NCBI GenBank assembly: GCA_021810245.1
Contig: JAJZJF010000002.1
Span: 1,594 to 65,593, forward strand
Length of the DNA stretch: 64,000 nucleotides
Source of the DNA: a bacterium
Lineage (GTDB): Bacteria > Elusimicrobiota > Elusimicrobia > UBA1565 > UBA9628
Reading direction: 5' to 3'
The notes under the pieces are model-generated. The model saw only the letters and a program-made list of their open reading frames with translations. It searched no databases and was not told where the DNA came from. The position numbers and the translations under genes are program-made. Positions within the stretch are counted from its first letter, which is position 1, and each line of letters begins with the position of its first letter. Shown piece by piece: positions 12,793 to 29,178 of the stretch.

Positions 12793-12869
12793 TGCGGGGT
12801 AGAGCAGCCTGGTAGCTCGCAAGGCTCATAACCTTGAGGTCGCTGGTTCAAATCCAGCCCCCGCAACCA
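12793..12869 (+). tRNA. tRNA-Met (anticodon CAT), initiator-like
   Basis: Hand-folded cloverleaf: TGCGGGG-TA-GAGC-AGCCTGGTA-GCTC-G-CAAGG-CTCATAA-CCTTG-AGGTC-GCTGG-TTCAAAT-CCAGC-CCCCGCA-A-CCA (77 nt). It has A11:T24, and its D and T loops match E. coli tRNA-fMet as I recall it. The 1:72 pair is weak (T1:A72). Only two of the three initiator G:C pairs are present in the anticodon stem. Confidence 0.85.
12822..12867. repeat. attL: 46-bp direct repeat (3' half of tRNA-Met)
   Basis: AGGCTCATAACCTTGAGGTCGCTGGTTCAAATCCAGCCCCCGCAAC is identical, base by base, to 29105-29150. Confidence 0.9.
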
Positions 12870-12901
12870 TTTAGCCGCGTTTCTCGACGAGAAATCGACT
12901 C

Positions 12902-12930
12902 GCCTGGGCCCGAAAAGGCCCGGGCTTTTT
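12902..12930 (+). terminator. Intrinsic terminator downstream of tRNA-Met (island-encoded)
   Basis: GCCTGGGCC-CGAAAA-GGCCCGGGC forms a 9-bp stem with one G:T pair, followed by TTTTT (12926-12930). Confidence 0.6.
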
Positions 12931-12977
12931 GATGCCTAAAAAGCCCGCAAGGCCCCAAGGTTAGTGGAGGTCGAGAA

Positions 12978-13946
12978 ATGGCAAAAACCGCGATCAGCCG
13001 AGCCGCCGTCGGCAATGAAGTCACCTTAGCCCATGCCTCGGAGTCCTTTCAGCTCCGTTGCCAGGCACGGAACCTTTCGCCGCTCACCTGCGATTGGTAC
13101 AAGCGTCGGCTAAAAAGATTCTGGCGTTTCCTTGAAGCGCAAGGCGTCACGCTTGGGCGCGAGATCACGCCGCATCTGATCCGTCTCTACTTGGACAAGA
13201 TGCGCGCGGAAAATCTGAGTTCCGGCCTCATCGCGCGGGACTACGGCGCATTCAAGTGCTTCTTTCGCTTCCTGACGCAAGAGCGGCTCATCCCGCAAAA
13301 TCCCATCCAGCTCGTGGAGAAGCCGCGCATGGAGCAGAAGCTCGTCCGGCCGCTCTCGATGGAGCAAGTGCGGCTGTTGCTTGCCAAGGCCAATCAAAAG
13401 CGGTTTTTTGGCCAGCGGGTCTGGACAATGGCGGTCCTCATCCTCGATACCGGCCTTCGCCGCGCCGAGGTCATTGGGCTCAAGAAAGACGACATAGACT
13501 TCAACAAGGGCGTCCTGCGCGTCATGGGCAAGGGCGGCAAGGAGCGCGAGGTCCCCTTCGGCGCGACCTCAAAGCAGGCGCTCTGGAACTACCTCATGCG
13601 CCGCGGCGAATTGCCCGGCCAGGAGCTACTCTTCGTGAATCAATTTGGCGATAAGATTTGCCCGCGCTGGATGAACAAGGCCATCAGGATGCTGGGCGAG
13701 CGGGCGGGGATCAAGGGCCTGCGCGTCTCGCCCCATGCGCTGCGCCACACCTTCGCGACGCAGTATATCTTGAACGGCGGCGACGCCTTCAGCCTCCAGC
13801 AAATCCTCGGGCATTCGACGCTTGAAATGGTGAAGGTCTATGTCGGTCTGGCCAACCGAGACGTGGCGCTGCTCCACCGGCGCTTCAGCCCGATGGACCG
13901 GATGGGCTTGGTGCCGGGCGCCAAGCGGCGAGTGCTGGTGAGGTAA
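12978..13946 (+). CDS. Tyrosine recombinase/integrase (XerC/D-like), island integrase 1
   Basis: N-terminal SAM-like core-binding domain. Catalytic region has TGLRRAE, HALRHTFAT, LGHSTLEMVKVY (R..H-x-x-R..H..Y). RBS GGAGG before the ATG. Confidence 0.9.
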   Translation: MAKTAISRAAVGNEVTLAHASESFQLRCQARNLSPLTCDWYKRRLKRFWRFLEAQGVTLGREITPHLIRLYLDKMRAENLSSGLIARDYGAFKCFFRFLTQERLIPQNPIQLVEKPRMEQKLVRPLSMEQVRLLLAKANQKRFFGQRVWTMAVLILDTGLRRAEVIGLKKDDIDFNKGVLRVMGKGGKEREVPFGATSKQALWNYLMRRGELPGQELLFVNQFGDKICPRWMNKAIRMLGERAGIKGLRVSPHALRHTFATQYILNGGDAFSLQQILGHSTLEMVKVYVGLANRDVALLHRRFSPMDRMGLVPGAKRRVLVR

Positions 13947-14212
13947 AATGAACAACCCCCTTGACGACATGGAATATACGCGGTAAAACAATGGCGTAAC
14001 CATGGAGCCATCCAATGATGAGTGAAACATGTCGACTCTTTTCTACCATTACAAAGTTGGATAAAAGACAGCGCCCGCGCAAGTCTCCACAATCCTTTCT
14101 ATGAATTAGATTGGGCGTCCCACAAACCCGAAAAGATTAAGCCGCTTTAGCCTTCCTTTGACGTTCCCCATATTCTTAGGCCAATATTTTTGTTTGATAG
14201 TAAAACATTCTA

Positions 14213-14241
14213 TTGACAGATAATCGAACATCTGTTACAAT
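14213..14241 (+). promoter_or_regulatory. Sigma70 promoter with embedded palindromic operator for the HTH-Panacea/toxin operon
   Basis: TTGACA (14213-14218), 17-nt spacer, TACAAT (14236-14241). The spacer contains the inverted repeat ACAGAT (14216-14221) / ATCTGT (14230-14235). Confidence 0.6.
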
Positions 14242-14264
14242 AAAATAAACAAAAAGGAGAAAGA

Positions 14265-15047
14265 ATGAACATTGGGGAAAGGATTCGTAAAATGCGCGAG
14301 AGTTTAAGCCTTAGTCAGCAGGACTTGGCCTTGAAAATCGGCTTGCCGCGACCGGCGCTTTCACAAATTGAGAGCGGAGGGCGTAAAGTCTCGGCTGATG
14401 AACTCCTCCTTTTCTCAAAAGCCCTCAACATGACGATCGACCAACTCATGGGCCTCTCGCCAGTTCCCAGCGTTTCCATCGCCTCTCCCAGCCGAGAAAA
14501 CCGAGCCACCCCGCATCCCCAGGAAATGCGGATTAGCGTTCCGCAAAAGAAAATGCAGAAATTCCGCCAGGTGATCCTCTATTTGCTCGACAAAGTCGGC
14601 GCCAAACCCAATATCGGGGAAACCGTTCTCTATAAGCTTTTATATTTTATTGATTTCAACTATTACGAGAAATACGAAGAGCAATTGATCGGCGCGACTT
14701 ACATTAAAAACCACTATGGCCCGACTCCCGTGGAGTTCAAAAAGTTAATAGATCAAATGGTCAAGGACAAAGAAATCGAGCAGGTCAAAAGCCGCTATTT
14801 TAATTTTCCGCAGACCAAATACCTGCCGCGTTTGTCTCCGGATTTATCCCTCTTTTCAGCGCGCGAAAAAGAGGAAATTGACCGCGTAATCGAACGCCTT
14901 TCCGACATGAACGCGGCGCAGATCAGCGCTTATTCGCACAAAGACGTCCCCTGGATAACGACCGAAAAGGGCCAGCCCATCGATTACGAATCGGTTTTTT
15001 ACCGGACGCCGGATTATTCCATGAGGCCCGCCATTGAAGACATTTAA
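14265..15047 (+). CDS. XRE-HTH fused to Panacea (DUF4065/SocA-like) antitoxin domain
   Basis: N-terminal HTH IRKMRESLSLSQQDLALKIGLPRPALSQIESGGRKVS. C-terminal LYKLLYFIDFNYYEKYEEQLIGATYIKNHYGPTPVEF matches the Panacea signature (KL.YF.D......G..l....y.....GP). RBS AAGGAG. Confidence 0.8.
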   Translation: MNIGERIRKMRESLSLSQQDLALKIGLPRPALSQIESGGRKVSADELLLFSKALNMTIDQLMGLSPVPSVSIASPSRENRATPHPQEMRISVPQKKMQKFRQVILYLLDKVGAKPNIGETVLYKLLYFIDFNYYEKYEEQLIGATYIKNHYGPTPVEFKKLIDQMVKDKEIEQVKSRYFNFPQTKYLPRLSPDLSLFSAREKEEIDRVIERLSDMNAAQISAYSHKDVPWITTEKGQPIDYESVFYRTPDYSMRPAIEDI

Positions 15048-15414
15048 TGAGATTATTCAATGTCCCGAGTTTAAGAAAGACATCAAAAAGCTCTCAAAGC
15101 GCTTTCGCTCGCTTCCTGAAGACCTCGCAACCTTCATCCGCTTCCAGCTTAATTCCTATCACAACCTGGGAATCGATAACGGCGGAATTTTTCGGATTCC
15201 CGGCCTGCCCTTCATAATCCCCAGCGTATACAAAGCCAAAAAATTCGCCTGCAAGGCCCTCAAGGGACGCGGCGCGCAATCGGGAATTCGGATTATTTAC
15301 GCTCATTTCGAAAGTGAAAATCGCATTGATCTAATCGAAATCTATTTCAAAGGCGACAAAGAAAACGAAAACAAGGAACGGATAGCGCGGATGTATCCTC
15401 AGAGAAGTAGCTGA
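15034..15414 (+). CDS. RelE/ParE-superfamily toxin (partner of the Panacea antitoxin)
   Basis: Overlaps the antitoxin by 14 nt. SGIRIIYAHFESENRIDLIEIYFKGDKEN matches the RelE/ParE core strands (yRiiY...i.li.i..K). There is no in-frame ATG near the 5' end, so TTG 15034 with GAGG upstream is the likely start. Confidence 0.65.
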   Translation: MKTFNEIIQCPEFKKDIKKLSKRFRSLPEDLATFIRFQLNSYHNLGIDNGGIFRIPGLPFIIPSVYKAKKFACKALKGRGAQSGIRIIYAHFESENRIDLIEIYFKGDKENENKERIARMYPQRSS

Positions 15415-15553
15415 AATGTCTTAGAAAGTTTGTCCATGGGGATGCGGCCGAGCAATTCGCGGAGAGCCCCCCGAAAGAATATCGCGAGCACAGTGGAAAC
15501 CATCCTTAACTCTCGATGCAAAACTGCCAACAGGGAAAGGTCTTCCTGCGGCC

Positions 15554-16117
15554 TTAAACTGCTTGAGTCATAGGCCGGTCAGCATAACGCTCAAGAAGAA
15601 GATCATGTTCAATAGCGTTCTTTATTTTTGCGTAAAAACCCTTAAGACGTGGATAGTCCAATAAAAATAACGCTCCAGCGAGGGGAACCGTCAGCATGAT
15701 CACTAGCAATAAAAGAGGAGAACGAAGCGTTAAAGAGAGACTCAATATTTCCGCCGCTTTGCGCCACTCAGCTTCCAGCTTTGTTCTCAGTTTTTTATCG
15801 TCAATCCGACTCAGGATTTCAGCAATCTGATTGCGCCGTGGTTTAAGCAGAAATAACGCCGCCATAATCTTGGGAAACGTCAACGTATGACAATAACGAA
15901 TAAGGCCATTGAACACCTCGCGAATATCGCGATATTCAGCGGAATTGAAATCAAGCTCCCCATCAGCCGCCATCAAAAATATTGTATTGCGAATCTTAAA
16001 AAGCTCGTGTCGGGCAATATCTATAATCAACCGCTGCCATAACCGATAGACAAACCACGCGAGAAGACCAATTCCAATTAAAAATTCTATGCGCCCAAAG
16101 AAAATTTCTCGTGTCAT
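15554..16117 (-). CDS. Hypothetical membrane protein (TM helix at each end, helical cytoplasmic middle)
   Basis: 187 aa. TM1 IEFLIGIGLLAWFVYRLW, TM2 LLLLVIMLTVPLAGALFLL. ATGA overlap with the upstream 129-aa gene. No family recognised. Confidence 0.6.
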   Translation of the reverse strand: MTREIFFGRIEFLIGIGLLAWFVYRLWQRLIIDIARHELFKIRNTIFLMAADGELDFNSAEYRDIREVFNGLIRYCHTLTFPKIMAALFLLKPRRNQIAEILSRIDDKKLRTKLEAEWRKAAEILSLSLTLRSPLLLLVIMLTVPLAGALFLLDYPRLKGFYAKIKNAIEHDLLLERYADRPMTQAV

Positions 16118-16503
16118 AGATTGGCATCCTCCGGATTTGTTTCTCCCTTATGCGTCAACATGCTGCTTGTTCTATTCGGATCCAGCCTTTTTTCCAATTC
16201 TACAATGTGATTCTGCATGCTTGCCACTTTTTTAAGCCGCAACTGACGTTCAAGAGTAGCCCATACGAAAAAAATAATCACTAAAATCCACGGCAACCAA
16301 TGGGAACGACTCTCTCGTGTAAAATATTGAAAAAAGAAATCCGCAATTGTCGTTTTCCCCGCCAACTCTTTGATGGAAAAATACCCATATCGGCAAACAA
16401 CCCATATTGCCGCTAGCGTTACAATTTTGGATAGGAAATCAAAAATCTTTACGACAATGAGAAATCGGAACCCCATCTCCGCATCCCGCGATTCCACTGC
16501 CAT
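16114..16503 (-). CDS. Hypothetical 2-TM protein with C-terminal coiled-coil
   Basis: 129 aa. TM helices FLIVVKIFDFLSKIVTLAAIWVV and WLPWILVIIFFVWATL, then the heptad-like ERQLRLKKVASMQNHIVELEKRL. No family recognised. Confidence 0.6.
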   Translation of the reverse strand: MAVESRDAEMGFRFLIVVKIFDFLSKIVTLAAIWVVCRYGYFSIKELAGKTTIADFFFQYFTRESRSHWLPWILVIIFFVWATLERQLRLKKVASMQNHIVELEKRLDPNRTSSMLTHKGETNPEDANL

Positions 16504-16509
16504 CGTCTG

Positions 16510-16539
16510 ATACTACAATACAATGAGAACCTCATGCAA
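16510..16539 (-). promoter_or_regulatory. Candidate promoter giving a leaderless transcript for the two membrane-protein genes
   Basis: Minus strand: TTGCAT (complement of 16534-16539), 18-nt spacer, TAGTAT (complement of 16510-16515), then 6 nt and the ATG at 16503. There is no Shine-Dalgarno sequence. Confidence 0.45.
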
Positions 16540-16639
16540 AAAAATAATCGGTGAGCGCCTTCATGTTCCAGCTAAGCTCCCTCGAGCATTCGAAATGTTT
16601 ACGTAATTTCCCTGTTGACTTGCACATAGAGTATAAGCT

Positions 16640-17005
16640 ACCCTGTCGTTACGCTCCAAGCGGAGCGGCTCTTTGACAACGGGTTTAAAACTTCTTCAAC
16701 TCTAGTCGTTAAGACTAGCCTCTAGGTGCGCCGAGGGCATCGTCCCTCAAACGTATCCTCCGGAGCAGAATCTGGCTCCTAAATCACTGCCTTATCGCTC
16801 AATGTCTCGCAACATTGAAACCAAGTTCGGTGGTTTTAGTCCAGATTTAATTCGGATAACTGAGAATTAAACTATTGAGTCATCAGTTTAATTTCCTGGG
16901 ATGGATAGCAAGACTTAAACTTAGTTAAAAAGTCTTGTTTTACGGAGTCGGTGTCGCGGGTAACCGCGTCGCTCCGTGATAAAAGTGGTTCAAAGAATAA
17001 CCAAG
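16640..17005 (+). ncRNA. Hairpin-rich non-coding leader; candidate retron msr-msd ncRNA (boundaries unknown)
   Basis: No credible ORF lies in 16504-17019. Hairpins read by eye: GCTCC/GGAGC 16653-16666; CTAGTC/GACTAG 16702-16718; GAGGG/CCCTC 16733-16748; palindrome CTCCGGAG 16757-16764; CAATGT/ACATTG 16800-16817; AATTAAACT/AGTTTAATT 16865-16893; CAAGACTT/AAGTCTTG 16909-16937; ACGGAG/CTCCGT 16942-16977 enclosing CGCGG-GTAA-CCGCG. I could not find a long a1/a2 inverted repeat by eye. Confidence 0.3.
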
Positions 17006-17019
17006 GAGGTGATAAGAAA

Positions 17020-17310
17020 ATGAAAAATAAGTTGAAGAAGGAAGTGTCGTTGCCCGTTGGAGAGGCTGAACAAATGGTACGCCTGCTAAAACAGGTTGCC
17101 GAAAATCGGCCGCTCACACCTCGCATCAGACGCAAGCTGTCAGAAGCCGCAGCGGGAATACAGACCCGCGTAAGTCTACTGAAAGACGGCCAGGTCAAGG
17201 TATCCGAGAAGTTGCTGGTAGTCGCACTTCGCGGTATCTCGCTTCTGGTTCACTTCCAGAAAGAAATCAGGGAAGTGGCAAGCGTTCTAATGGGCATGAA
17301 GGACAAATAA
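17020..17310 (+). CDS. Small helical protein of unknown function, first cistron of the RT operon
   Basis: 96 aa from ATG 17020, with strong RBS AAGGAGGTG at 17003-17011. The track's longer GTG 16951 start would read through the structured leader. No family recognised. Confidence 0.6.
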   Translation: MKNKLKKEVSLPVGEAEQMVRLLKQVAENRPLTPRIRRKLSEAAAGIQTRVSLLKDGQVKVSEKLLVVALRGISLLVHFQKEIREVASVLMGMKDK

Positions 17311-17328
17311 AACACCGACTCACATTTT

Positions 17329-17616
17329 ATGATTAAATTCGGAAGGACGATCAAGACGTATCGGAAAAAAATGAGGCTAACGCAGGTGGCGTTAGCTCAA
17401 CGGGTTAATATTGAACCAACATATTTGTCAGCAATTGAGAATGGCAGGCGCGAGCCGAGCTTGACGCTTGTAAAACAAATCAGCAAGGCTGTGGCAATCC
17501 CAGCCGAAATCTTTTTCTGGGATGCCATTGAGCCAAAAGGCTCCATGTCACTTCAAGATCGGCGCGCCATAAATCTTGCAAAAAGCATCCTCCAGAATCA
17601 CTTCAAAGCGCTCTAG
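17329..17616 (+). CDS. XRE-family HTH protein
   Basis: IKTYRKKMRLTQVALAQRVNIEPTYLSAIENGRREPSLTLVKQISKAV is a classic Cro/C1-type HTH. The stop lies 9 nt before the RT start. Confidence 0.8.
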   Translation: MIKFGRTIKTYRKKMRLTQVALAQRVNIEPTYLSAIENGRREPSLTLVKQISKAVAIPAEIFFWDAIEPKGSMSLQDRRAINLAKSILQNHFKAL

Positions 17617-17625
17617 AACTCTGCA

Positions 17626-18546
17626 GTGAACTTAGCACGTTTAGACTTGGCAAATATGGAGCAACTGGGTGAGGTTGCTTCTGTCTCCAGCTCCCAACTA
17701 CTCTGCATTATTCGTAACAAAGAGTCATACTACGAAAGTTTTTTTATGAAGAAGAAGGACGGTGCACCGCGAGAAATCAATCCGCCCAAACCCGAACTCG
17801 CAGAAATCCAACTACGCTTAAAAAACTATCTCCAAAAGCGACTCAAATGGACCAACGCGGTCCATGGTGGCATTCCAAAACGCAGCATAATCACAAATGC
17901 GGAAAGGCATATGGGTAAACTCTGGGTCGCGAACCTGGATATCTCAAAATTCTTCCCCAGCACGAAGCCCGCCCAGATTGAATCAGCGCTCCAAAGGGCG
18001 GGGTGCTCAACCCCAGTGGCCAATCTTTTCGCCGAACTAACAACTTTTAGGAATGGGCTACCTCAAGGCTCTCCCACAAGCACAATCCTGAGCAACCTCG
18101 TGCTCGAACCGATGGATTCACAATTTCTGCGTTTATGTCATCGCAACTCCCTTACCTATACCCGCTATATTGACGACATCACGATATCAGGCGATATCAA
18201 CCTAAACCCATTCTATTCTGCGTTCATTAAAATAATCCAATCGTCTGGATTTGAGGTGCAGACAAAAAAAGTCCACATAACTCCTCACTCCCAGCGTCAA
18301 GTTGTTACCGGCCTAGTCGTCAATGACAGATTGAGACCAACGGGCGAGTTCCTAAGTAATCTAAAGCGAGCAATTCGTCGATGCTGGAATGGTCCAGAAG
18401 AAATTGCTATTGCGGCGGCAGAGGAAGGCCATGAGCCCAGAGAGTTCATTCGCTCACTTTGTGGAAAGGTAAATCACGTCAAGTCCGTTGACCCCAAACT
18501 TGGCCGTAAAATTCGCGCTCTGTGCACTAAAATCCCGCACTTGTAA
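17626..18546 (+). CDS. Retron-type reverse transcriptase
   Basis: 306 aa, the typical retron RT size. Motifs: PPKPELAEIQLRLKNYL; GGIPKRSIITNAERH (retron NAxxH motif); LDISKFFPS; LPQGSPTSTILSNL; YTRYIDDITISGD (YIDD at 18166-18177); RQVVTGLVVN (retron VTG motif); LCGKVNHVKSV thumb. No extra fused domain. GTG start. Confidence 0.85.
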   Translation: MNLARLDLANMEQLGEVASVSSSQLLCIIRNKESYYESFFMKKKDGAPREINPPKPELAEIQLRLKNYLQKRLKWTNAVHGGIPKRSIITNAERHMGKLWVANLDISKFFPSTKPAQIESALQRAGCSTPVANLFAELTTFRNGLPQGSPTSTILSNLVLEPMDSQFLRLCHRNSLTYTRYIDDITISGDINLNPFYSAFIKIIQSSGFEVQTKKVHITPHSQRQVVTGLVVNDRLRPTGEFLSNLKRAIRRCWNGPEEIAIAAAEEGHEPREFIRSLCGKVNHVKSVDPKLGRKIRALCTKIPHL

Positions 18547-18591
18547 TTTAAATAGGCAGAAGATTTTATAGACCATCGGCTTGCTCGGATA

Positions 18592-19770
18592 TCATGTAGC
18601 GACCGTTTTCTTAGGATAGCGTCCAACAATACGAACGGCTGTTTTCAATACATAGGCAGGCTTCTTGCCATCCAGAATTTTTGGGTTGGATACTTCGTAA
18701 TAGGCGCCACCCCAATAATGCCCTAAAGAGCAGGTCAATATTTCATCTTTAGGAAGCCTAAATACCACTTTATGAGCTTCCGTTTCGTCTACACCCGTCC
18801 CTCTACCACCCAAGGGGAGGTCCACTGTGATAAGATGAACCCCTGTTGGGTCGGAAATGAATAGTGCCTCGTCATTTGTTGGGGCAATCTGATATTCAAA
18901 ATAATCGCTCGCAGGAATTAGTCCTGATGCGGCATGCGTCGTTTTGATTTTAATGGCCATGTTAATAATAGATTCAAGCGCCCAGTGAAGAGATTCTTGG
19001 CTCCAGTTGCCTTCGTGGCTGTAATCGCCGTCCAATTCAATTTTTAGAGGAGATTCCTGTTTCCTATTCCAATGCACGACAGGGAGAATCAGGCTTAATC
19101 TTTGGAATTCATGAATGTCTAGGCCAAATTGCAACATTTTTATTTCCTGCTCGTATGAAGGAGTGGCGGAGTAGTAGCCCAAACCAACTAATCCACTGGG
19201 GTGATCAAATTCATGATCAAATAACACATATTTAACTTTTGCAAGTATCTCGACGCATTCCTGCCAAGATTCAGGCGTTCCTTTCTCCAGTTCCCGCTCA
19301 GCGCTCTTAACCATGTTCCTGATTTCTTCATCGGAAATCATGTCGGACAAGCTCAATTTTTCAAAATCCCTTTCCAGAAAAGTCGAACTTGCGTATTCAA
19401 GAAATGGTTTCACGGCTCCGATGGCTTGGGCGTGATCGGAAGGCCTTTGCAATATGCCGTAATGTTTAACGCTTACGCGCGCCCTGTTTAATTGGGATAG
19501 CTCGCGCTCATAGGGCAATTTTTTATTTTGTTCCAGTTCCTTGTTAATCGCGCCGAAGTAGCCCGAGAACGTCATTGGATCTTTCAGCTTCGCGTTGATG
19601 ACGCTGGCAATCGCTCCCAAGGCAAGTTCCACCGCATCTTGCAGGGACAAAAGTCCTTTTGAAAATTCAAATAGGTCGAGTTGATTCGCACAGGCAAGAC
19701 TCCCCTGTTGAAAGAGCCTCTTTGCCAAAACCATGCGCTCAATGACGGATTTATCAATCACCTTTGGCAT
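18592..19770 (-). CDS. Hypothetical 392-aa protein, fourth cistron of the type I R-M operon; possible HEPN/DUF4145-like N-terminal domain
   Basis: ATG 19770 is 3 nt downstream of the hsdS stop (19774-19776) on the same strand. The N-terminal helical region contains LSQLNRARVSVKHYG (R-x4-H). The C-terminal half is beta-rich and unrecognised. Confidence 0.6.
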   Translation of the reverse strand: MPKVIDKSVIERMVLAKRLFQQGSLACANQLDLFEFSKGLLSLQDAVELALGAIASVINAKLKDPMTFSGYFGAINKELEQNKKLPYERELSQLNRARVSVKHYGILQRPSDHAQAIGAVKPFLEYASSTFLERDFEKLSLSDMISDEEIRNMVKSAERELEKGTPESWQECVEILAKVKYVLFDHEFDHPSGLVGLGYYSATPSYEQEIKMLQFGLDIHEFQRLSLILPVVHWNRKQESPLKIELDGDYSHEGNWSQESLHWALESIINMAIKIKTTHAASGLIPASDYFEYQIAPTNDEALFISDPTGVHLITVDLPLGGRGTGVDETEAHKVVFRLPKDEILTCSLGHYWGGAYYEVSNPKILDGKKPAYVLKTAVRIVGRYPKKTVAT

Positions 19771-19773
19771 GGT

Positions 19774-20928
19774 TTAAATCTCCCCCTCAAACGCCCGGTG
19801 CAAAAGGGACTGAAACAACTCGTCCAATTTCTCGCGGCTCGCGGCTTGAGCGGCTTCCATGGCGCGAATTTCGGCGACGCGCGCGGCGAAGTCTTTTTGT
19901 AGCGCTATCGGTGGAAGTGGAAGCTCGATGGCCTGAAGTTCCTTGGCATTGATGTTTGCCTGCCCTACAGCGCCACGCGCCATTTCTGCAAGGCGTCGCT
20001 TCATCGAAGTCATATTCATAAAGGCAGTGAAGTGCAAAGGATGCTCAATGTTGGGTTGGAAACGAATACGAATAAAGTAGGAAGCGGCGACAGCCTTGAA
20101 TCTTCCATCCCACATCCCCGTTTTGCCGACTAACTCGCGGCTATTTGTTCTGTTAAAAAGAACATCACCTTGCTTTAACTGATGCTTTAAAATCTCGGTA
20201 TCCGTTAATTCAACCGTCTTCAAATCTTTTAAGTCTAGTTGTCCGTCCATTGTAACATTGCCCATTCGCAAAACAACGATGCCTCGATCAGCTTCATTCG
20301 CCTTCTGGCTTGTCCCATAATCACAGGATTCCATTAGAGAACCCACTCGACTTATGGGCCACCCTTTAGGATTTGTCACGGGATCCCCAAACATCTCATG
20401 AAAGAGCGCGGGGATGAGGTCGGCGGCGCGGCGGTCGGCTTGGGCGCGGAGTTTTCGCAATTCATCCGCCGCGTCCAGCAGCTTCACGATTCGCTCTTGC
20501 TCCGCCAGCGGCGGAACGGGAATCTCGGTTCTCTCAAATGGCTCTTTCGTAATGTGTTGCATCGTCGCTCCATGTGTCTTGGAGCGGAGCTCGCCCATCA
20601 CCAACTTGAGTGCATAAAAGAGGTATGTCCTCAAGACTTGAGAGGGATTAGGAACGGCGCGGAAAATGTGCTGGTTTAGAACAGCTTCCCCTCTTTCCCA
20701 AATAAATACGTCCAACGTGGCAGACCAAGAAATTAAAATGTCGCCGTTTTTTACGGCATGACGTTCGTCAATTTTACCTGCGAAGTAATTTGCGCGAGTG
20801 TTTGAGTTAGTAAGATTTTGAATTCGAATAATAGGAACACCGTCAGATGACCACTCATTTGGCTTGAAAGCTCGGCCATTTATGAAATCAGATACTTCGC
20901 CGAGCTTTTTCAGCGGCCAGCGGGTCAT
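19774..20928 (-). CDS. hsdS: Type I restriction-modification specificity subunit HsdS
   Basis: Two target-recognition halves separated by the conserved helical spacers LPPLAEQERIVKLLDAADELRKLRAQA and LPLPPIALQKDFAARVAEIRAMEAAQ. 4-nt overlap with hsdM. Confidence 0.9.
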   Translation of the reverse strand: MTRWPLKKLGEVSDFINGRAFKPNEWSSDGVPIIRIQNLTNSNTRANYFAGKIDERHAVKNGDILISWSATLDVFIWERGEAVLNQHIFRAVPNPSQVLRTYLFYALKLVMGELRSKTHGATMQHITKEPFERTEIPVPPLAEQERIVKLLDAADELRKLRAQADRRAADLIPALFHEMFGDPVTNPKGWPISRVGSLMESCDYGTSQKANEADRGIVVLRMGNVTMDGQLDLKDLKTVELTDTEILKHQLKQGDVLFNRTNSRELVGKTGMWDGRFKAVAASYFIRIRFQPNIEHPLHFTAFMNMTSMKRRLAEMARGAVGQANINAKELQAIELPLPPIALQKDFAARVAEIRAMEAAQAASREKLDELFQSLLHRAFEGEI

Positions 20929-22457
20929 TGGGGTTTGCCGATTTGATCGAGCAAGGCGTTGCCGCGACGGATGATTTCGGCTTCGAGATCGAGGACTTCG
21001 GCGAGAATTTTTTTCGGGGAGTCGTGGTTGACGGAGGAAACCGTCACGGGTTTATAGCGGCCTGCCGCGAGACTCCAGGAGTTTTCCCGGATTTTTTCGA
21101 TCGGAACGCGGTAGCTGTTGGGGCCTTCCTCTTTATTGGGCCATTTGGACAAGAGATCGGGAATATCGTTAGCCGCGATCGGCGTTCGTTTGTCATCAAG
21201 ACTGAGACCGTCAGCGGTCAAATCGTAAAACCAGACGCTTTTCGTCGGCTCGCCTTTTTGAAAGATCAGCGCGGCGGTGCCGACGCCGGAATAAGGCTTA
21301 AAAACGCCACTTGGCAAATTGATCACGGCCTGCAAATCGCATTCAGTCAAAAGCAGTTCGCGCAAGGAAGTCGCCGCGTTGCTAGAGCCAAAAAGAACGC
21401 CGTTGGGAACGATGACGCCCGCCCGGCCATTTTGCGCCAGATGATCGATGAACCATTTGAGAAACAGAAGTTCGGTTGAGCGCGTGTTGAGTTTATAATT
21501 AAGATCAGACAAAATGCTCTCGTCTTGAACTTTCCCGGCAAACGGCGGGTTGGCCAAAATCACGTCGAATTGCTTTCCGGGATACGCGCCGCTAAAACCC
21601 GTGGTCAGGGGATCCTTCATCTCGATTTGGGTTTTCTCCAATTGGTGTAGGTAGAGGTTTAAGATCGCGATTTTCACCATATTCGCGTCATTGTCAAAGC
21701 CGATGAAGGCTTGGTCTTCGAGAAATTTCCATTGAGCGGGCTTGATGAGCGCTCCGTCCGCCAAACCGCGTTTTAAGTCCGCAGGTTTTGTATTTTGGCG
21801 CAGGATGTGGTTAAAAGCCGCAATAAGAAAGCCCGCCGTGCCGCAGGCGGGGTCGCAGATGCGCTCGTTCGGCTGTGGATTAACTAAAGCGGTGATCAGG
21901 GCAATGATGTGACGCGGAGTTCGGAATTGCCCATTGGTTCCGGACGCGGACAGTTGGCTCAAGAGATACTCATACATATCTCCTTTAAGATCGTGCCCAT
22001 CATGGGCGGACAAGTCCATTTCATGAATGCCTTGGATCACGGCTCGCAGCGCAGGACGATTGTAAATTTTGAGCGTGGCGCGGCTAAAAAGCAACTTGCC
22101 TGTTTCAGAGAGACTGGGAAGCTCATGCAATCTTTCCATCGCGTCGCGAACGACGTTAAAGAGATTGTCGCCGGTCAAGGTGACGAAGTTCCCCCACGCA
22201 AAGCGCGCCCATTCCCCGGAGAAAATGCGCTTATATTTCTTGTCAAGATTTGCGAAGGCCTCGTCTTTTTCGGTGAGCAGGCGCAAAAAGAGCAGATAGG
22301 AAATCTGTTCGATTGAGTCCATCGGATTATTGACGCCACCGGCAAACAAGATGTTCATGAGTTGGTCTATCTTTTGCCGCAAACCGGAAGAAAAAAAGTT
22401 CGATTGCGGGACACCCGGCTGAGGCGTCACGGGAGCGGACTTTGTCTGCGTTTTCAT
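20925..22457 (-). CDS. hsdM: Type I R-M N6-adenine DNA methyltransferase HsdM
   Basis: HsdM_N-like N-terminus, SAM motif DPACGTAGFL and catalytic NPPF (ILANPPFAG). Confidence 0.95.
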   Translation of the reverse strand: MKTQTKSAPVTPQPGVPQSNFFSSGLRQKIDQLMNILFAGGVNNPMDSIEQISYLLFLRLLTEKDEAFANLDKKYKRIFSGEWARFAWGNFVTLTGDNLFNVVRDAMERLHELPSLSETGKLLFSRATLKIYNRPALRAVIQGIHEMDLSAHDGHDLKGDMYEYLLSQLSASGTNGQFRTPRHIIALITALVNPQPNERICDPACGTAGFLIAAFNHILRQNTKPADLKRGLADGALIKPAQWKFLEDQAFIGFDNDANMVKIAILNLYLHQLEKTQIEMKDPLTTGFSGAYPGKQFDVILANPPFAGKVQDESILSDLNYKLNTRSTELLFLKWFIDHLAQNGRAGVIVPNGVLFGSSNAATSLRELLLTECDLQAVINLPSGVFKPYSGVGTAALIFQKGEPTKSVWFYDLTADGLSLDDKRTPIAANDIPDLLSKWPNKEEGPNSYRVPIEKIRENSWSLAAGRYKPVTVSSVNHDSPKKILAEVLDLEAEIIRRGNALLDQIGKPQ

Positions 22458-24865
22458 TGATAATGGCTCGCGATCATGGATTGGCGAATCAACGGAGATT
22501 GCCTGAGAGCTTCAAAGACCTGCTCCCGATCTTCAAAACGGGCCAAGGCCGAAATGCCGCCGATTTGATTAAACTGACTCGCGTTAAAGATCGTCATGTC
22601 TTCCTCCATAAACCGTTTCAGGACTTCGGCGTCATTGGCCAGAAGCTGAGCCGTCGCGCTCAGCCATTTTTGCTGATCGTAACGCAAATTAAAGCGGGCG
22701 GCAATGGAATCCACGGTGTCACTGACAATTTCATCGCGCGTCGGCAACGGTCTTCGGCCAACGGCGTTATAGACAAAGGCCGAAGTCGTCGCTGGAACGC
22801 CGTAAGAGACAATGAGTTTATCGGGAGAATAAAACATCTCGGGGCGGTGATAGAACCTTTCGTTGACGATCGTCTCAACGCTGTCATCGTCTTCCGCTTC
22901 GACGGCGGCTTTGAGTTCCGGTGTTTTTTCGACAAATTCTTTCATGTCTTGTTCATAACCGCCGCGAAAGGTCATCACGTCCACTTTTTCGCCATTGGGG
23001 CCGACAATTTTTATTTCTTGGCTGACAAGAGTGTCGATACCTTCCCAAACCGGAATTTCAGGCTTCTCCGATAACGGCTCGGATGAATTGCCGGGGGCGT
23101 TATGAAACTCGCTGGGCTTGCCGCCGGGCGGGTGCGGCTTTGATATTGCCTGTTTATTTTCGCGCGGAACATTCAATGGTAACGAATAATCATATTCTTC
23201 CTCGAAGTATTCCGCGACGGCGCAAAAATCGAGCATAAAGAATTTTTTCTTTTCATATTCAGTATGACCTACTTTAAATGTAAATAGGCGCGTGCCACGC
23301 CCCTTGATCTGAATATATTCAGTCGGCGAGAAAATTGGCCGCATGAGGCCGATATTGAGCAAATCGCGGCAGTTGTAGCCAGTAGAAAGCATGTCCACCG
23401 ATACGGCAATGCGCTCCGAACGCTTGCCGTCGCGAAAATCCTTGGCCAAGACGGAAGCATCTTTGATTCGTGAGGTGATCGTCAACGCAACGCTCGGCTG
23501 AATTTCGTTAAAGATTTTAGTGAGACTGGTCGCATGGGTCTGATTGACGGCAAAAATAAGAGATTTGCCGATCTTCCCCTCAGGATCGCGCTGAGATTCT
23601 TTAAGAAAGGTTTCACACATAAGGCGATTGCGCGCGGGAGTGAAAATTTTGCGCTCCAAATCTTGAATCTTAAAGCTTTCTTCCTGCTCATCAACGAGAA
23701 CGGCCCAGCCGGAATCAGACAAGGCTTGAGTGGTGACCTCCGAGCGAATATCAAAAATCTTCGGCAGACAAAGAAAGGGGCCTTCAATATCCTTGACGGC
23801 GTCGAGGATATCGTAGCGAAAAGTCGGGGAACCCGGCTCGCAGCCGAAATAGCGATAGGTGTCGCGAAGCTCGCGGGCTTCCAGCGCCTTAGGATTATCC
23901 TCGGCCAATCGCTTGACGTTGACGTTTTTAAGATACGCCTTTGGCGTGGCGGTTAAACCAATGCGCGTGGCTTGAAAGAACTGGACGACTTCGCGCGCGT
24001 TGCCGTAAATCGAGCGGTGAGCCTCATCGTTGATGACCAAGTCAAAATAAAATGGAGTAAAGTCTTTGCGATAGCGGCGATCCGTCATCAGAGATTGAAT
24101 AGTGGCGACCACCACTGATGAGGCAAGAAGCTCGCCGCTGCGCCGAGCACTCTTAAAAACAACCGGCTTAAATTCCGGCAAAACGGCCTTAAAATCTTCC
24201 ATGGTTTGTTTTGCCAATTCAATACGGTCAACAATGAATAAAACTCGCTCGGCATTGCGGCTGGTGAGAAAACGGCGAATCAGCGCGGCGCAGAGAAGAG
24301 TTTTTCCGGTTCCGGTCGCCATTTCCAAAAGAAATTTTCTTTGTCCTTTCTCATCGAAAAGCCGCGCAATTTCATCTATCGCTTTAATCTGATAGCGCCT
24401 CAGCACAAAATCCTTCTTGAGCCCTTGGAGATAATCAGGCTTGATGATTTCACTTTGAAGAGGATTCGGCGGCTGGAGATTTTTGAGGCGAAGGCGCTCC
24501 ATATCCCGCCTTGAGGGCAGCCGCTCGATGCGATAAGCGTCGCGCTGATCGGCCCGCTCGTAGTTCCAAAACCAGTGCTCGCGGCCATTGGAAAGAATAA
24601 TGAAAGGAGCTTTTAGATTTTCCGCGTAACCGCGCGCCTGTTCTTTAGCGTCATAGGGATCCAAATCTTCACGTTTGGCTTCTAAAACACAAAGCGCGCG
24701 GCCTAGGCTATCTTTGAGAATGTAGTCGGCGCGGCCATTCTGGGTATGAAGCTCAAACTGGACTTGCTTGGAATCGAGCAAATCCCAATCGCTGTCTTGA
24801 AGAGCGCGATCGATAAGAATCCGCGAAAAGGCCTCCGGCTGGTTAGGCACGGGCAGTCTCAACAT
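22454..24865 (-). CDS. hsdR: Type I restriction enzyme R subunit HsdR
   Basis: N-terminal nuclease-like domain (ADYILKD...LEAKR), helicase motif I MATGTGKT and motif II VINDEAHRS. ATGA overlap with hsdM. Confidence 0.9.
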   Translation of the reverse strand: MLRLPVPNQPEAFSRILIDRALQDSDWDLLDSKQVQFELHTQNGRADYILKDSLGRALCVLEAKREDLDPYDAKEQARGYAENLKAPFIILSNGREHWFWNYERADQRDAYRIERLPSRRDMERLRLKNLQPPNPLQSEIIKPDYLQGLKKDFVLRRYQIKAIDEIARLFDEKGQRKFLLEMATGTGKTLLCAALIRRFLTSRNAERVLFIVDRIELAKQTMEDFKAVLPEFKPVVFKSARRSGELLASSVVVATIQSLMTDRRYRKDFTPFYFDLVINDEAHRSIYGNAREVVQFFQATRIGLTATPKAYLKNVNVKRLAEDNPKALEARELRDTYRYFGCEPGSPTFRYDILDAVKDIEGPFLCLPKIFDIRSEVTTQALSDSGWAVLVDEQEESFKIQDLERKIFTPARNRLMCETFLKESQRDPEGKIGKSLIFAVNQTHATSLTKIFNEIQPSVALTITSRIKDASVLAKDFRDGKRSERIAVSVDMLSTGYNCRDLLNIGLMRPIFSPTEYIQIKGRGTRLFTFKVGHTEYEKKKFFMLDFCAVAEYFEEEYDYSLPLNVPRENKQAISKPHPPGGKPSEFHNAPGNSSEPLSEKPEIPVWEGIDTLVSQEIKIVGPNGEKVDVMTFRGGYEQDMKEFVEKTPELKAAVEAEDDDSVETIVNERFYHRPEMFYSPDKLIVSYGVPATTSAFVYNAVGRRPLPTRDEIVSDTVDSIAARFNLRYDQQKWLSATAQLLANDAEVLKRFMEEDMTIFNASQFNQIGGISALARFEDREQVFEALRQSPLIRQSMIASHYQ

Positions 24866-25160
24866 CGCTGGGAATCACAGTCCGACTCTTGCGCGGCCGC
24901 CCTGGAATCGGCCGGGATTCAAGGCCGTCCATTCCCTCCTGAGCGAAACGATAGCGCCATTTTTTCACGGTGTTGCGGCTGATCCCGAGTTCTTTGGCGA
25001 TCCTGTAATTGGTCTGGCCGCGGGCGGCCCGCGAGACGATGTCGGCCCGCAGCGCTTCCTGGTGCGACCAGCTGACGCCCTTGTTCCATCGGCCCAGGAG
25101 CATTTTTTCCTGGTTCGAGAGCCGGATTTCGATCGATTTTTTCCTGGGCATACGCAACAA
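24843..25160 (-). pseudogene. IS630-family transposase remnant (N-terminal HTH part only)
   Basis: GQTNYRIAKELGISRNTVKKWRYRFAQEGMDGLESRPIPGRPRK is the IS630/Tc1-type N-terminal HTH. The reading frame ends inside the hsdR start region and no DDE domain follows. Confidence 0.6.
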
Positions 25161-25233
25161 TGTTTAGTATAGCAATATGGTCACATATTTTCAATTTTTT
25201 CGATGGAGCGCGTGCCGATATGCGCCCCGCGCC

Positions 25234-25374
25234 CGAATAGGAAGTGAGGGGATCCTCTACCCGGAAACCGCGAAACTTGGAAGAGAAAATAGTGGAAAAA
25301 CTCAGCCATCGGGCAGATGGAGAAACAAAATAATGGGCGGATTTGGAGGGGTGCGGCGAATAGGAAGTGAGGGG
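25234..25374. repeat. Two copies of an 18-bp direct repeat, CGAATAGGAAGTGAGGGG
   Basis: Exact copies at 25234-25251 and 25357-25374, with starts 123 bp apart, in non-coding DNA between the IS remnant and the replication-relaxation gene. Confidence 0.8.
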
Positions 25375-25572
25375 CGCTTGGGAATGAAACGCTCCGGAAA
25401 TGTGCGGAATTGACTGGCTCAAACGATTAGTATTTGTGGGGAGTTTTAAGCGAAAGGGCGTCTAACGCCCCCTCCAACAAAACAGACGTATGGATTTTGA
25501 GTGGTGAAGATGAAAAAACATGGAAATTGCGGCACAATATCGCCCGCCTCGCGTCGGGCGGGGCCCTTCGCG

Positions 25573-25636
25573 TTTCCTGACCACACCCCCTCAACCATAT
25601 GAATTCGTGGTATCGGGAGGTGGTGTGGTCAGGAAA
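25573..25636. repeat. 15-bp perfect inverted repeat (hairpin/operator) upstream of the replication-relaxation gene
   Basis: TTTCCTGACCACACC (25573-25587) and GGTGTGGTCAGGAAA (25622-25636), about 35 nt before the ATG at 25671. Confidence 0.8.
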
Positions 25637-25670
25637 TCGGCGGGCTAATGAATGGCAATTGGGAGGGTGA

Positions 25671-26507
25671 ATGTCCGAGTTTTGGGAGAGGTTAAGCGGG
25701 AATTTTAGGCTGGAGGAAAGGGATATTTTGGTTCTCTTGGCTCTGGAGAAATGGGGCGTTCTGGGGTTGGGACAGTTGGATGGGATGTTGTTCCGGAGGA
25801 AGGCGGAAGAGATGGAAAGGGTGCGGCTTTTTTTCAACGAGATTGAGCGGAAGGACTATTGGCGGATGGGGTACAAGCGGCTTCGGAGTCTGGAAAAAAG
25901 AGGCTTCATCCGGCAGGAGGTCTATGTCGGCCAGAGGAAAGTCTTTCTTCTGACGGCGCGGGGTTATCGAGTTTTGCGCGAACTGGGGCGGGCTCGGCTC
26001 AAGCGGCCTTTGTTGTCTTTGTCCGAGTGGTGGGTCAGGCACGAGCTCACGGTGAGCGCGGCGGGGCTCATCATTTCGGAGCTCCTGGGCCGTAAAGTCA
26101 CGACCGCGCGCGAGCGGTTTCAAGGCAGCCGTTTCGAGGTCCGGACCTCGCTTCGATCCGCCGAGATGCCGGATCTTTGGGTGATGAACGACGGGGGACC
26201 GCGTCCCGTTGAGATCGAGCTTCAACCCAAGAGCAAATCCCGCTACAAGGAATTGTGGAACAGCTACCGGCGGAGGTTCCCGGAGGGGACGGCGGTGCTC
26301 TACCTGACTGGCTGGCCGCGCGGCGAGGAGTGGATTTTCCACCTCGCGAGGAAATTGGGGCAGGCTTATTTCATCTACGCGGCGTCATTAGATGAGTTCC
26401 GCCGGACCCGCGGCCAAATCCCGTTCGCCAGCGGCGATGAGATTCGGAGCCGCGATTTCATCTCGCTTAAAATTTCCGAAGGGAAGGAGGCGGCCAATGG
26501 AGCTTGA
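25671..26507 (+). CDS. Replication-relaxation family protein (winged-helix N-terminus)
   Basis: LEERDILVLLALEKWGVLGLGQLDGMLF...YKRLRSLEKRGFIRQ...FLLTARGYRVL...HELTVS fits the Replic_Relax pattern as I remember it. RBS GGGAGGG. Followed by an integrase with an 11-nt overlap. Confidence 0.6.
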   Translation: MSEFWERLSGNFRLEERDILVLLALEKWGVLGLGQLDGMLFRRKAEEMERVRLFFNEIERKDYWRMGYKRLRSLEKRGFIRQEVYVGQRKVFLLTARGYRVLRELGRARLKRPLLSLSEWWVRHELTVSAAGLIISELLGRKVTTARERFQGSRFEVRTSLRSAEMPDLWVMNDGGPRPVEIELQPKSKSRYKELWNSYRRRFPEGTAVLYLTGWPRGEEWIFHLARKLGQAYFIYAASLDEFRRTRGQIPFASGDEIRSRDFISLKISEGKEAANGA

Positions 26508-27450
26508 AGAAGCATCGAAGGCATTTCTATCGCGCTGCGGGGCGCTCAATCTCGCGGATGGAACGCTCGCCTGGTACGGCCACATCCTCCGGGACCTGAC
26601 GGCCTTTCTGGCCGCGAAAGGAATCCTCCGATTGGGCGCCGTGACGCCCGCGCTGCTGCGGGACTTCCTCGCTTCGCTCAGGCAAAAAGGCCACGCCTCG
26701 GAAACGATCGCGCGAACCTACGGAGCCATCCGCTGTCTGTTTCAGTTCTGGACGAGGGAGGGCTTCCTGGAGAAAAACCCCATGGAATTGGTCGAACGGC
26801 CCAGGCGCGAGCGGGTCCTCATCCGCCCCATGAGCCCCGAGCAGGCCGCGCGGCTTCTGGATCAGCCGGATGGCCGCTCCGTTCACGGCCTCCGGGATCG
26901 CGCGCTCATGATGCTGATGCTGGATTCGGGCCTGCGCGTTTCCGAGGCCCTGTCCTTGGAGGCGAACCGAATCGATTGGATGAACTGCGTCCTGACCGTC
27001 ATGGGCAAGGGTAGGAAGGAGCGCTCGGTCCCGTTTTCGACGCGGACTTGCCAGGCCCTTCTGGAATACGCCCGCGAGCGCGGGAAAAGCTCCGCCAAGT
27101 CTCCGCAATTCTTCCTTGGGCGGACGGGAAAGCCTCTTGATCGCTGCAAGGTTCGCCAGCGCATGAAGCGTTGCGCCCGCCAGGCGGGCATCGAAGGCGT
27201 GCGGGTTTCCCCGCATACTTTGCGCCACACCTTCGCCGTCATGTATGTCCGCAACGGCGGCGACGCCTTCAGCCTCCAGCAAATCCTCGGGCACTCGACG
27301 CTTGAGATGACCCGCCGCTACGTCAACTTCGCCCGCCAGGACGTGGCCGCGCAGCATAGGAAGTTTTCTCCAATGGAAAGCTTGATGGGAAAACCGGTTG
27401 AGGCGATCAGTCCGATGCATTTCGAGTCTGTCCTGGAGGGCGCGCGCTGA
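26497..27450 (+). CDS. Tyrosine recombinase/integrase, island integrase 2 (paralogue of 12978-13946)
   Basis: Start at ATG 26497 (MELEEASKAFL) behind AAGGAGG. The track's 26392 start lies in the upstream gene. Catalytic SGLRVSE, HTLRHTFAV, LGHSTLEMTRRY. Confidence 0.9.
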   Translation: MELEEASKAFLSRCGALNLADGTLAWYGHILRDLTAFLAAKGILRLGAVTPALLRDFLASLRQKGHASETIARTYGAIRCLFQFWTREGFLEKNPMELVERPRRERVLIRPMSPEQAARLLDQPDGRSVHGLRDRALMMLMLDSGLRVSEALSLEANRIDWMNCVLTVMGKGRKERSVPFSTRTCQALLEYARERGKSSAKSPQFFLGRTGKPLDRCKVRQRMKRCARQAGIEGVRVSPHTLRHTFAVMYVRNGGDAFSLQQILGHSTLEMTRRYVNFARQDVAAQHRKFSPMESLMGKPVEAISPMHFESVLEGAR

Positions 27451-27537
27451 CCTTAGCTTCTGCGATTCATGCGCGGGATAAATTGATTTTACCGCGTTTT
27501 CTGTGTACAATACCTCAAGAAAGTTGAGGATATATAC

Positions 27538-28152
27538 ATGGGCAAGTATAACGCCGCTTACGACCGCCTCTATGAGACCGCCGCGGACCAACAGGGCTAC
27601 TTTACCACGAAGCAGGCCATCGCCGCCGGCTACGCCGACAACGTGCACTCGTTTCACGTCAAGGCTGGCAACTGGATTCGGGAGCACAGAGGCATCTATC
27701 GGCTGGCGAAATACCCGCTAGGAGATCATCCCGATATGATGCAGTGGTATCTCTGGTCCCGCGATCGAAACGATGCGCCCCAAGGCGTCTACTCGCACGA
27801 GACGGCGCTCAGCTTCCATGATCTCTCGGATATCAACCCTCCAAAACTGCACATGACCGTGCCGCCGCGATTCCGTCGCGCCGGCGAAATACCAAGGATT
27901 CTCGTTCTCCATCGCGGACTCCTTCACCAGGACGACATCGAGAACGTGCAGGGCTTCAGGATCACCAAACCCCTGCGGACGCTTGCCGATCTTCTTATCG
28001 CCCGGACCATGCAGATGGATCACATGGCGCAAGGGGTAAAGCAGGCATTTCAACGCGGACTCGTTACGCGCTCGCAGCTTGAGAGGGCCGCTCAAATTCC
28101 CGATCCTATCAAGCGGGAGATCGAACAACTAAGGGATCAGCGCCGTGGATAA
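27538..28152 (+). CDS. AbiEi-family antitoxin/transcriptional regulator
   Basis: N-terminal YFTTKQAIAAGYADNVHSFHVKAGNWIREHRGIYRL is the AbiEi_4-type winged helix. Overlaps the downstream AbiEii gene by 8 nt. Confidence 0.75.
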   Translation: MGKYNAAYDRLYETAADQQGYFTTKQAIAAGYADNVHSFHVKAGNWIREHRGIYRLAKYPLGDHPDMMQWYLWSRDRNDAPQGVYSHETALSFHDLSDINPPKLHMTVPPRFRRAGEIPRILVLHRGLLHQDDIENVQGFRITKPLRTLADLLIARTMQMDHMAQGVKQAFQRGLVTRSQLERAAQIPDPIKREIEQLRDQRRG

Positions 28153-29008: not shown

Positions 29009-29104
29009 CATTTGCTATACTATTTTTGGGCCCTAAGGTTAGTCGAACATCTTGGGGTTTCGCGGAAGCTGGACTCGACTGAGAGGTTTTGCTCCTTGAA
29101 TTTG

Positions 29105-29150: not shown

Positions 29151-29178
29151 GTTTTTGAAAAGCTCCTCCCTAAAAAAG

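Follow-up and report, generated by a model that had tools for sequence, protein, structure and literature searches.

A candidate HEPN ribonuclease of an uncatalogued family behind the type I restriction–modification operon of an Elusimicrobiota defence island

Is a gene that directly follows the genes of a type I restriction–modification (R-M) system a dependent of that system, or can it encode a defence of its own? The question is raised by a 64,000-nucleotide stretch of DNA from an Elusimicrobiota bacterium (assembly GCA_021810245.1, contig JAJZJF010000002.1, positions 1,594 to 65,593; hereafter the window), in whose listing of open reading frames (ORFs) a 392-amino-acid ORF occupies positions 18592..19770 of the minus strand, immediately behind hsdS. 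An initial annotation, made from the sequence alone, recognised no family in this ORF, singled out an R-x4-H motif, and proposed, with PrrC as the precedent, a latent nuclease guarded by the R-M complex. We consider it probable, though by a small measure, that the gene encodes instead an autonomous, single-polypeptide HEPN ribonuclease of abortive infection, a member of a large uncatalogued family that is here part of a tRNA-Met defence island.

A HEPN domain in an uncatalogued family

The 392-amino-acid ORF is a real gene under purifying selection. Its ratio of nonsynonymous to synonymous substitution rates (dN/dS) is 0.13, 0.13 and 0.19 against the three closest relatives, and selection is strongest on the N-terminal domain, the first 135 residues giving 0.04 as against 0.13 overall. 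Because ratios of 0.13-0.19 are accompanied by five close and about 1,900 distant clusters of homologues, the gene is not a chance ORF. Its lack of a recognisable family, which the initial annotation had reported, was borne out: the protein has no match in Pfam, PADLOC, NCBIfam or the sequences of the PDB, 50 sampled family members have none in Pfam (E<=0.01), and a profile of 50 sequences finds nothing in the PDB beyond a weak match (E 0.12) of the middle region to the uncharacterised 3nym. The PADLOC models, those for ApeA included, assign no family to the protein or to its relatives P0012 and P0016, and the one match in PHROGs, over residues 7-161, is to phrog_37995, a family of unknown function.

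A word-indexed homologue search badly under-reported the family, yielding only 5-6 matches versus the 1,908 cluster representatives (clusters counted at 50% identity) that an exhaustive profile search recovered at E<=1e-3; at E<=1e-10 there are 916, and many of the proteins are full length (380-410 amino acids). The family is large, occurs mostly in uncultured bacteria, including lineages of the candidate phyla radiation, and is uncatalogued in Pfam, PADLOC and NCBIfam; because it is invisible to these libraries, current defence-system annotation misses it. The close clade (alignment A1) was found neither in 185,579 species genomes nor in IMG/VR, and a broader alignment (A4) located only five loci in metagenome-assembled genomes (MAGs) and one viral locus. 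Searches with tblastn gave no match in phages and only weak, partial matches in plasmids, including a decayed copy from Paraburkholderia. This copy, on the megaplasmid of P. caribensis (L031 8983-9979), is broken into fragments of 209 and 130 amino acids beside a DDE transposase, and no other match in the collections searched comes from a cultured proteobacterium.

Residues 1-135 (19366..19770, minus strand) are predicted by AlphaFold2 to adopt the HEPN fold, a four-helix up-down bundle of two alpha-hairpins, with helix-1 at residues 7-29, helix-2 at 33-57, an insert helix at 68-78, helix-3 at 88-104 and helix-4 at 110-132. When this region was compared with known structures by Foldseek, the best compact matches were HEPN structures (2hsb, 1wol, 1ufb, 1o3u, 5yep, 8xeh, 8xdj, 3o10, which is the HEPN domain of sacsin, and 1ylm, which is YutE), with probabilities of 0.82-1.0, those of the first six being 0.9-1.0, and template modelling (TM) scores of 0.6-0.7 on the target. 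The assignment leans on these probabilities, on the consistency of the ranking and on the R-x4-H motif. The HEPN-MNT minimal toxins 2hsb, 1o3u, 5yep and 8xeh are the best structural matches, but the present protein is three times larger, carries extra domains, and has no MNT partner gene beside it.

The motif itself, R98-V-S-V-K-H103, is encoded by the codons CGC GTA AGC GTT AAA CAT (19462..19479, minus strand), lies within residues 91-105 (LSQLNRARVSVKHYG), and is the putative catalytic site. In the model it stands at the C-terminal end of helix-3 and is followed by G105, while D45 forms a conserved acidic residue in helix-2 and the insert helix separates helix-2 from helix-3. A census of HEPN domains places the R/H motif where helix-3 ends, and describes both a conserved acidic residue in helix-2 and insertions that separate helix-2 from helix-3 (PMC3710099). 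Because the model reproduces all three features, the identification of the N-terminal domain as HEPN is well supported.

The pattern of conservation points in the same direction. In an alignment of 50 homologues, which are 19-80% identical to the window protein, R98 and H103 are the sole invariant columns, and at least 90% of members conserve K17, D32, D45, Y71, L94, N95, K102, G105, G216, P230, N255 and W256. Of 162 retrieved sequences, 139 contain the signature N-x2-R-x3-K-H-x-G, in many cases written R-N-N-I-K-H, which is the canonical HEPN form R-N-x3-H. The initial annotation had read the spacing of this motif as that of HEPN ribonucleases, and invariance, fold and position at the end of helix-3 all agree with that reading. 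Membership in DUF4145 (PF13643), a likeness to which it had suggested, was not borne out at the level of the family model. Although DUF4145 shares the R-(N)-x3-H motif, is frequently attached to R-M components, is recorded in fusions with SH3 domains in Firmicutes (PMC3710099), and is represented by two genes adjoining the relative P0010, its hidden Markov model matches neither the window protein (E<=1) nor 50 of its relatives (E<=0.01); moreover, K-H-x-G and the middle domain described below are specific to the present family.

A HEPN domain might bind rather than cut. Some HEPN families are non-catalytic binders (PMC3710099), and the protein could on this model have a regulatory task in binding a ligand or a protein, or act as an antitoxin-like partner of neighbouring effectors, which would accord with the varied effector-like genes (TIR, HNH and metallo-beta-lactamase, MBL) found beside its relatives and with the valine that follows the catalytic arginine in the window clade. 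We regard this explanation as very improbable: Families of this kind typically lose Rx4-6H (PMC3710099), whereas R and H are the only residues that are universally invariant in the family examined here.

Architecture and proposed mode of action

Three further parts are predicted beyond the HEPN domain: a hairpin of helices, an alpha/beta domain specific to the family and, at the C-terminus, an SH3-like barrel. The hairpin (residues 136-190; 19201..19365, minus strand) is formed in the AlphaFold2 model by helices at 148-163 and 166-183, and has conserved residues at S140, L141, A157 and E158. The middle domain, which we call GNW (residues ~191-280; 18931..19200, minus strand), is delimited by alignments and by the conserved residues G216, P230, H252, N255 and W256. 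Residues 186-392 were also modelled on their own, from 28 sequences, with a predicted local distance difference test score (pLDDT) of 82 and a predicted TM score of 0.71, and this model gave no convincing Foldseek match for the domain. For the last ~100 residues, within the C-terminal segment ~281-392 (18595..18930, minus strand), the best match is the bacterial SH3-like structure 9ovi_A (probability 0.99, TM score 0.72 on the target, root-mean-square deviation 2.9, E 0.08), after which rank the SH3b modules of endolysins (4krt, 9kz1 and 5d76); endolysins were also matched in BFVD, a library of viral structures. The E-values of these SH3-like matches are weak (0.08-1), and no Pfam SH3 family matches the protein.

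The initial annotation had divided the protein into a helical N-terminal third and a C-terminal two-thirds that was beta-rich and novel. The N-terminus is indeed helical, but the helical part reaches about residue 188, or about half of the protein. The claim of novelty is likewise partly right: the GNW domain is probably new, but it is alpha/beta, its fold spanning residues ~205-280, and the terminal barrel, at ~290-386, appears to be of a common fold.

We infer ribonuclease activity and a trigger, toxicity and autonomy of the protein as follows. The hsd operon would supply the protein together with HsdRMS, and the protein would be kept inactive, with its two C-terminal domains (GNW and SH3-like) serving as a sensor or regulatory module. 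Upon phage infection, these domains would free the HEPN active sites or change their orientation (such sites are formed across a dimer in HEPN enzymes), and the enzyme would then cut cellular or phage RNA without the need for a metal, the anticodon loops of tRNAs being the precedent. The resulting arrest of translation would lead to abortive infection and provide a second line behind restriction. Under this mechanism, the location behind hsdS would reflect the insertion of a cassette into a hot spot for defence genes together with shared expression, and not an obligatory partnership with the R-M complex.

That a single HEPN polypeptide can both sense and kill is known from two abortive-infection anticodon nucleases with built-in sensors, HepS (PMC13043305) and ApeA (bioRxiv 10.64898/2026.01.26.701840). 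Both are oligomeric, and the R100/H105 pair of HepS is near the position of R98/H103. However, HepS is a single domain of ~205 amino acids versus a multi-domain protein of 392, neither system has a sequence match to the window protein through the PDB or PADLOC, both are absent from its top 50 fold matches, and the sensor domains differ. HepS and ApeA are best seen as functional analogues and not as detectable relatives.

A census of 2013 by Anantharaman et al. predicted that second-line defence by HEPN ribonucleases embedded in R-M loci would be widespread; it enumerated at least 16 HEPN clades in R-M operons (e.g., AbiU2, AbiJ solos, ApeA, EC042_2821 and pEK499_p136) and proposed the analogy to PrrC (PMC3710099). 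With these toxins the window gene shares a conserved Rx4H, a place inside or beside an R-M operon, a mobile defence locus and a proposed second-line targeting of RNA, but it matches none of their sequence models and has a distinct architecture. HEPN toxins encoded within R-M operons are thus an already known category, as are HEPN–SH3 fusions in the case of DUF4145 (PMC3710099). What is new is the family itself, with its family-specific middle domain, missing from libraries of domains and of defence systems. Very few R-M-embedded HEPN ribonucleases have been tested (PrrC and, lately, ApeA and HepS). As a candidate the family is compact, comprising a single gene, and has a clear mutational handle (R98/H103) and an unexplored sensor module.

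Partners, neighbours and the 3' end of hsdS

By Pfam and PADLOC, the type I R-M operon of the window is complete (19774..24865, minus strand: hsdS 19774-20928, hsdM 20925-22457, hsdR 22454-24865), and there is an overlap of 4 nt at each of its hsdR/hsdM and hsdM/hsdS junctions. Between the hsdS stop codon (TAA, 19774-19776) and the ATG of the HEPN gene at 19770 lies a spacer of only 3 nt (ACC, 19771..19773, minus strand); a Shine-Dalgarno-like GGGGGAG run lies ahead of this ATG within the final hsdS codons. In locus L001, which holds one of the closest relatives, the equivalent gap is 4 nt. The gene is indeed, as had been annotated, a fourth cistron that starts 3 nt past hsdS on the same strand. 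That it must be co-transcribed with the R-M genes was too strong a statement: the tight same-strand spacing argues for co-transcription with hsdS, but because a scan for promoters and terminators gave nothing above chance, we infer it from spacing only.

The same arrangement recurs among the closest relatives, P0003 (L001/L002) and probably P0001 (L009), in which the family gene likewise directly follows the hsdS stop. In L001 and L009, moreover, the stop codon of the homologue is overlapped by the start of a gene for a partner protein of ~440 amino acids (L001 2669-3991; L009 1193-2509). The last ~135 bp of hsdS in L001 is duplicated on both sides of this gene pair (~1325-1460 and 4008-4140), each copy ending at a stop codon, and because the pair is bracketed by these duplicated ends it can be read as an inserted cassette. 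This suggests that the hsdS 3' end is a hot spot of recombination or insertion for defence cassettes. A cassette landing directly behind hsdS would share its expression with the R-M operon; no specific tie of the gene to the restriction enzyme is evident.

In the window, the partner gene has left no remnant detectable by tblastn. DNA homology to L009 breaks off, by blastn, at 18607, 15 nt short of the stop codon of the HEPN gene, and the C-terminal tail of the protein differs from those of P0001-P0003. The last 15 nt of the gene and the 45-bp spacer beyond it (18547..18607) are thus a probable recombination junction. Because homology ends there, a type VI retron module (~16504-18606) stands where the closest relatives have the partner gene and a second fragment of hsdS, and the comparison of loci indicates that the retron replaced the partner. 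This local history, in which a HEPN pair appears to have been exchanged for a retron, is also new, and makes the locus a clear case, found in nature, of cassettes turning over at the 3' end of hsdS.

Our survey of genomic contexts covered ~17 loci, and hsd genes are linked in only 2-3 of these, all from the closest clade. R-M or methyltransferase genes of any kind are within ~6 kb in roughly half. Elsewhere, family members follow a TIR gene, an MmeI/Eco57I-type IIG enzyme and a Schlafen/AlbA_2 gene (P0005), an MBL-fold gene resembling RTasMBL/LmuA (P0002), or two DUF4145 genes (P0010); overlap an HNH_5 gene near a ResIII/N6_N4_Mtase pair (P0016); or are found among ORF6N, UDG, Trypsin_2 and a type III-like pair (P0012), within integrase islands (P0004 and P0027), near methyltransferase fusions (loci in Saccharibacteria MAGs), on plasmids of Streptomycetaceae, and, as a 307-aa relative, in a contig of a Mu-like phage. 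P0031 and P0028 are essentially solo amid housekeeping genes. The homologues are therefore linked to defence islands and mobile elements, through genes as varied as those for R-M, TIR, HNH_5, MBL and DUF4145 proteins, but not consistently to hsd. The Mu-like phage contig also encodes a fusion of a Mu F-like head morphogenesis protein to a CdiA_C toxin domain (L027 4208-5497).

These results bear directly on the model of a PrrC-like guard, in which the HEPN nuclease would be bound and silenced by HsdRMS and unleashed when an anti-restriction protein of a phage disables the R-M enzyme. The position of the gene as a fourth cistron, 3 nt after hsdS and with its Shine-Dalgarno-like sequence inside hsdS, speaks for such a model, the hsdS-adjacent position is repeated in L001/L002 and probably in L009, and the census proposes this logic for at least 16 R-M-linked HEPN clades (PMC3710099). 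PrrC and RloC, too, are HEPN ribonucleases with genes embedded in type I hsd loci, and in PrrC neither the R nor the H of the motif is dispensable (PMC3710099). However, the hsd linkage that the window gene has in common with them is confined to its closest clade, other relatives being beside type IIG or type III systems or without R-M genes, and the L001 cassette, set between duplicated hsdS ends, indicates a secondary insertion, whereas PrrC sits between the hsd genes. PrrC and RloC have an N-terminal ABC/SbcC-like ATPase and a C-terminal HEPN domain; here the HEPN domain is N-terminal, and neither Pfam, NCBIfam nor PADLOC detects an ATPase domain that could act as the regulatory domain of PrrC. 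Finally, the hsdS genes of L001 and the window are only 35% identical, as against 56-58% for the HEPN proteins, so that no co-evolving interface is evident. The guarded nuclease of the initial annotation is, on this evidence, unlikely.

A serious alternative, though one that we still hold to be rather unlikely, is that the window gene belongs to a two-gene system and has been orphaned by the loss of the other half, the overlapping 440-amino-acid protein, and that the retron swap left a copy that is non-functional or only partly functional. The coupling of start and stop codons in L001 and L009 would be explained in this way, as would the break in homology just before the stop codon of the window gene and the loss of every trace of the partner; P0016 likewise overlaps a neighbour, the HNH_5 gene. 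The partner has a C-terminal motif of its own, 'RSRRNLYVH' (R-N-x3-H), and may represent a second novel HEPN family. But its HEPN nature is a motif-level lead, because the protein has no Pfam, PADLOC or PDB match and hhalign detects no relationship to the family of the window gene. In addition, the window copy is full length, has kept every conserved residue despite the loss of the clade-specific partner, and has a dN/dS of 0.13. Across the family, partners vary or are absent.

That variation admits another scheme, in which the family supplies the unvarying, RNA-cleaving component of an unrecognised class of modular defence systems and is translationally coupled to interchangeable effectors (the 440-amino-acid HEPN-like protein, HNH, TIR or MBL). 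In the type I-linked clade, it would also act as a PrrC-like back-up that reads failure of Hsd through its GNW and SH3-like domains, and the hsdS 3' end would be a dedicated hot spot at which back-up cassettes and retrons are exchanged. We consider this combination quite unlikely. The partner genes of different relatives have no homology to one another, and a common adaptor domain among them was rejected on these grounds. Two neighbours of family members that match no family contain R-x4-6-H strings, 'HRTLGDAVH' in a 271-aa protein (L003 11229-12044) and 'RCSLLH' in a 198-aa protein (L018 3016-3612), and may reflect a recurrent pairing of HEPN with HEPN.

The autonomous, single-polypeptide ribonuclease that we favour is suggested by the solo relatives, by the mutually unrelated partners of the others, and by the intact window copy that stands without its clade partner; a role in defence is suggested by the tRNA-Met island, with its type I R-M system, type VI retron, Panacea toxin–antitoxin gene and AbiE pair, and by the neighbours of the relatives. 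Several points weigh against it. Because both of the closest relatives with downstream sequence have the coupled 440-amino-acid partner, the protein may not be self-sufficient, and what remains in the window could be an orphan that has been disabled. The sample of contexts is small and biased to long contigs. The full-length AlphaFold2 model was built from only 6 sequences and has a pLDDT of 76, and the E-values of the HEPN matches in Foldseek are weak (0.2-1.5) and not significant alone. Lastly, the window protein and its close clade have valine directly after the catalytic arginine (RVSVKH) in place of the usual polar N, D or H, whereas many other family members have asparagine there (RNNIKH).

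The tRNA-Met island and its retron

The gene and the R-M operon are part of an integrated defence island of ~16.3 kb (12822..29155). The tRNA-Met gene at 12793-12869 marks one end, and because its 3' end of 51 nt (12822-12872) recurs at 29105-29155 with 96% identity, the element can be delimited; these direct repeats are its attL and attR. Its cargo, comprising a tyrosine recombinase, an HTH-SocA/Panacea gene, two small membrane-protein genes, the retron, the HEPN gene, hsdSMR, a second integrase and AbiEi/AbiEii, is that of a typical defence island.

The retron (16504..18546, plus strand) is of type VI because the helix-turn-helix (HTH) gene ahead of its reverse transcriptase (RT) gene matches the PADLOC model HTH_VI (6.7e-21); the RT matches RT_VI (1.3e-64), although other retron RT models score alike. 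Its parts are a structured non-coding region (~16600-16960), a small ORF (17020-17310), the HTH gene (17329-17616) and the RT gene (17626-18546). Compared with shuffled sequence, the segment 16600-16960 has a much better fold (z = -4.1), and 16504-17328 is the probable region of the retron non-coding RNA; Rfam recognised no retron msr or other RNA family in the 14-20 kb interval of the window. A promoter-like pair, TTGACT...TATAAG, is present at ~16615-16645 within this putative region. The small ORF, ahead of the HTH_VI gene, encodes 96 amino acids, has an AAGGAGG ribosome-binding site, and matches no family.

As the initial annotation had observed, the RT gene (17626..18546, plus strand) converges on the HEPN gene and ends 45 bp from its stop codon. 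This proximity raises the possibility that the HEPN protein is the effector of the retron, which would sense infection and leave the HEPN protein to execute the response; a HEPN-containing retron type, type IX, has been described (bioRxiv 10.64898/2026.07.14.737667). Such a role is hardly credible, and we rejected it. The two genes are on opposite strands and convergent, the retron already has the HTH partner proper to type VI, no RT occurs in any of the ~17 homologue contexts, and, when L001 and L009 are compared with the window, the retron is seen to have been inserted as a replacement.

Beyond the retron are the two small, overlapping membrane-protein genes (15554..16503, minus strand), which encode 187 and 129 amino acids. 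They are the counterparts of the 128-aa and 186-aa genes downstream of the second hsdS copy in L001, to which the window genes have 76% and 62% identity, respectively, and by this synteny they may be ancestral cargo downstream of hsdS. The 187-aa protein has a faint match to the PADLOC model '1TM-TIR' (E 0.002), and neither gene has any other family assignment. Two more modules of the toxin–antitoxin or Abi kind are part of the island: at 14265-15414 (plus strand), the HTH-SocA/Panacea antitoxin-like gene is followed by a 126-aa gene without a family, and the AbiEi/AbiEii pair occupies 27538-29008 (plus strand). The two tyrosine recombinases (12978-13946 and 26392-27450) share DNA segments of 82-84% identity, and because of this the island may consist of two tandem or composite elements.

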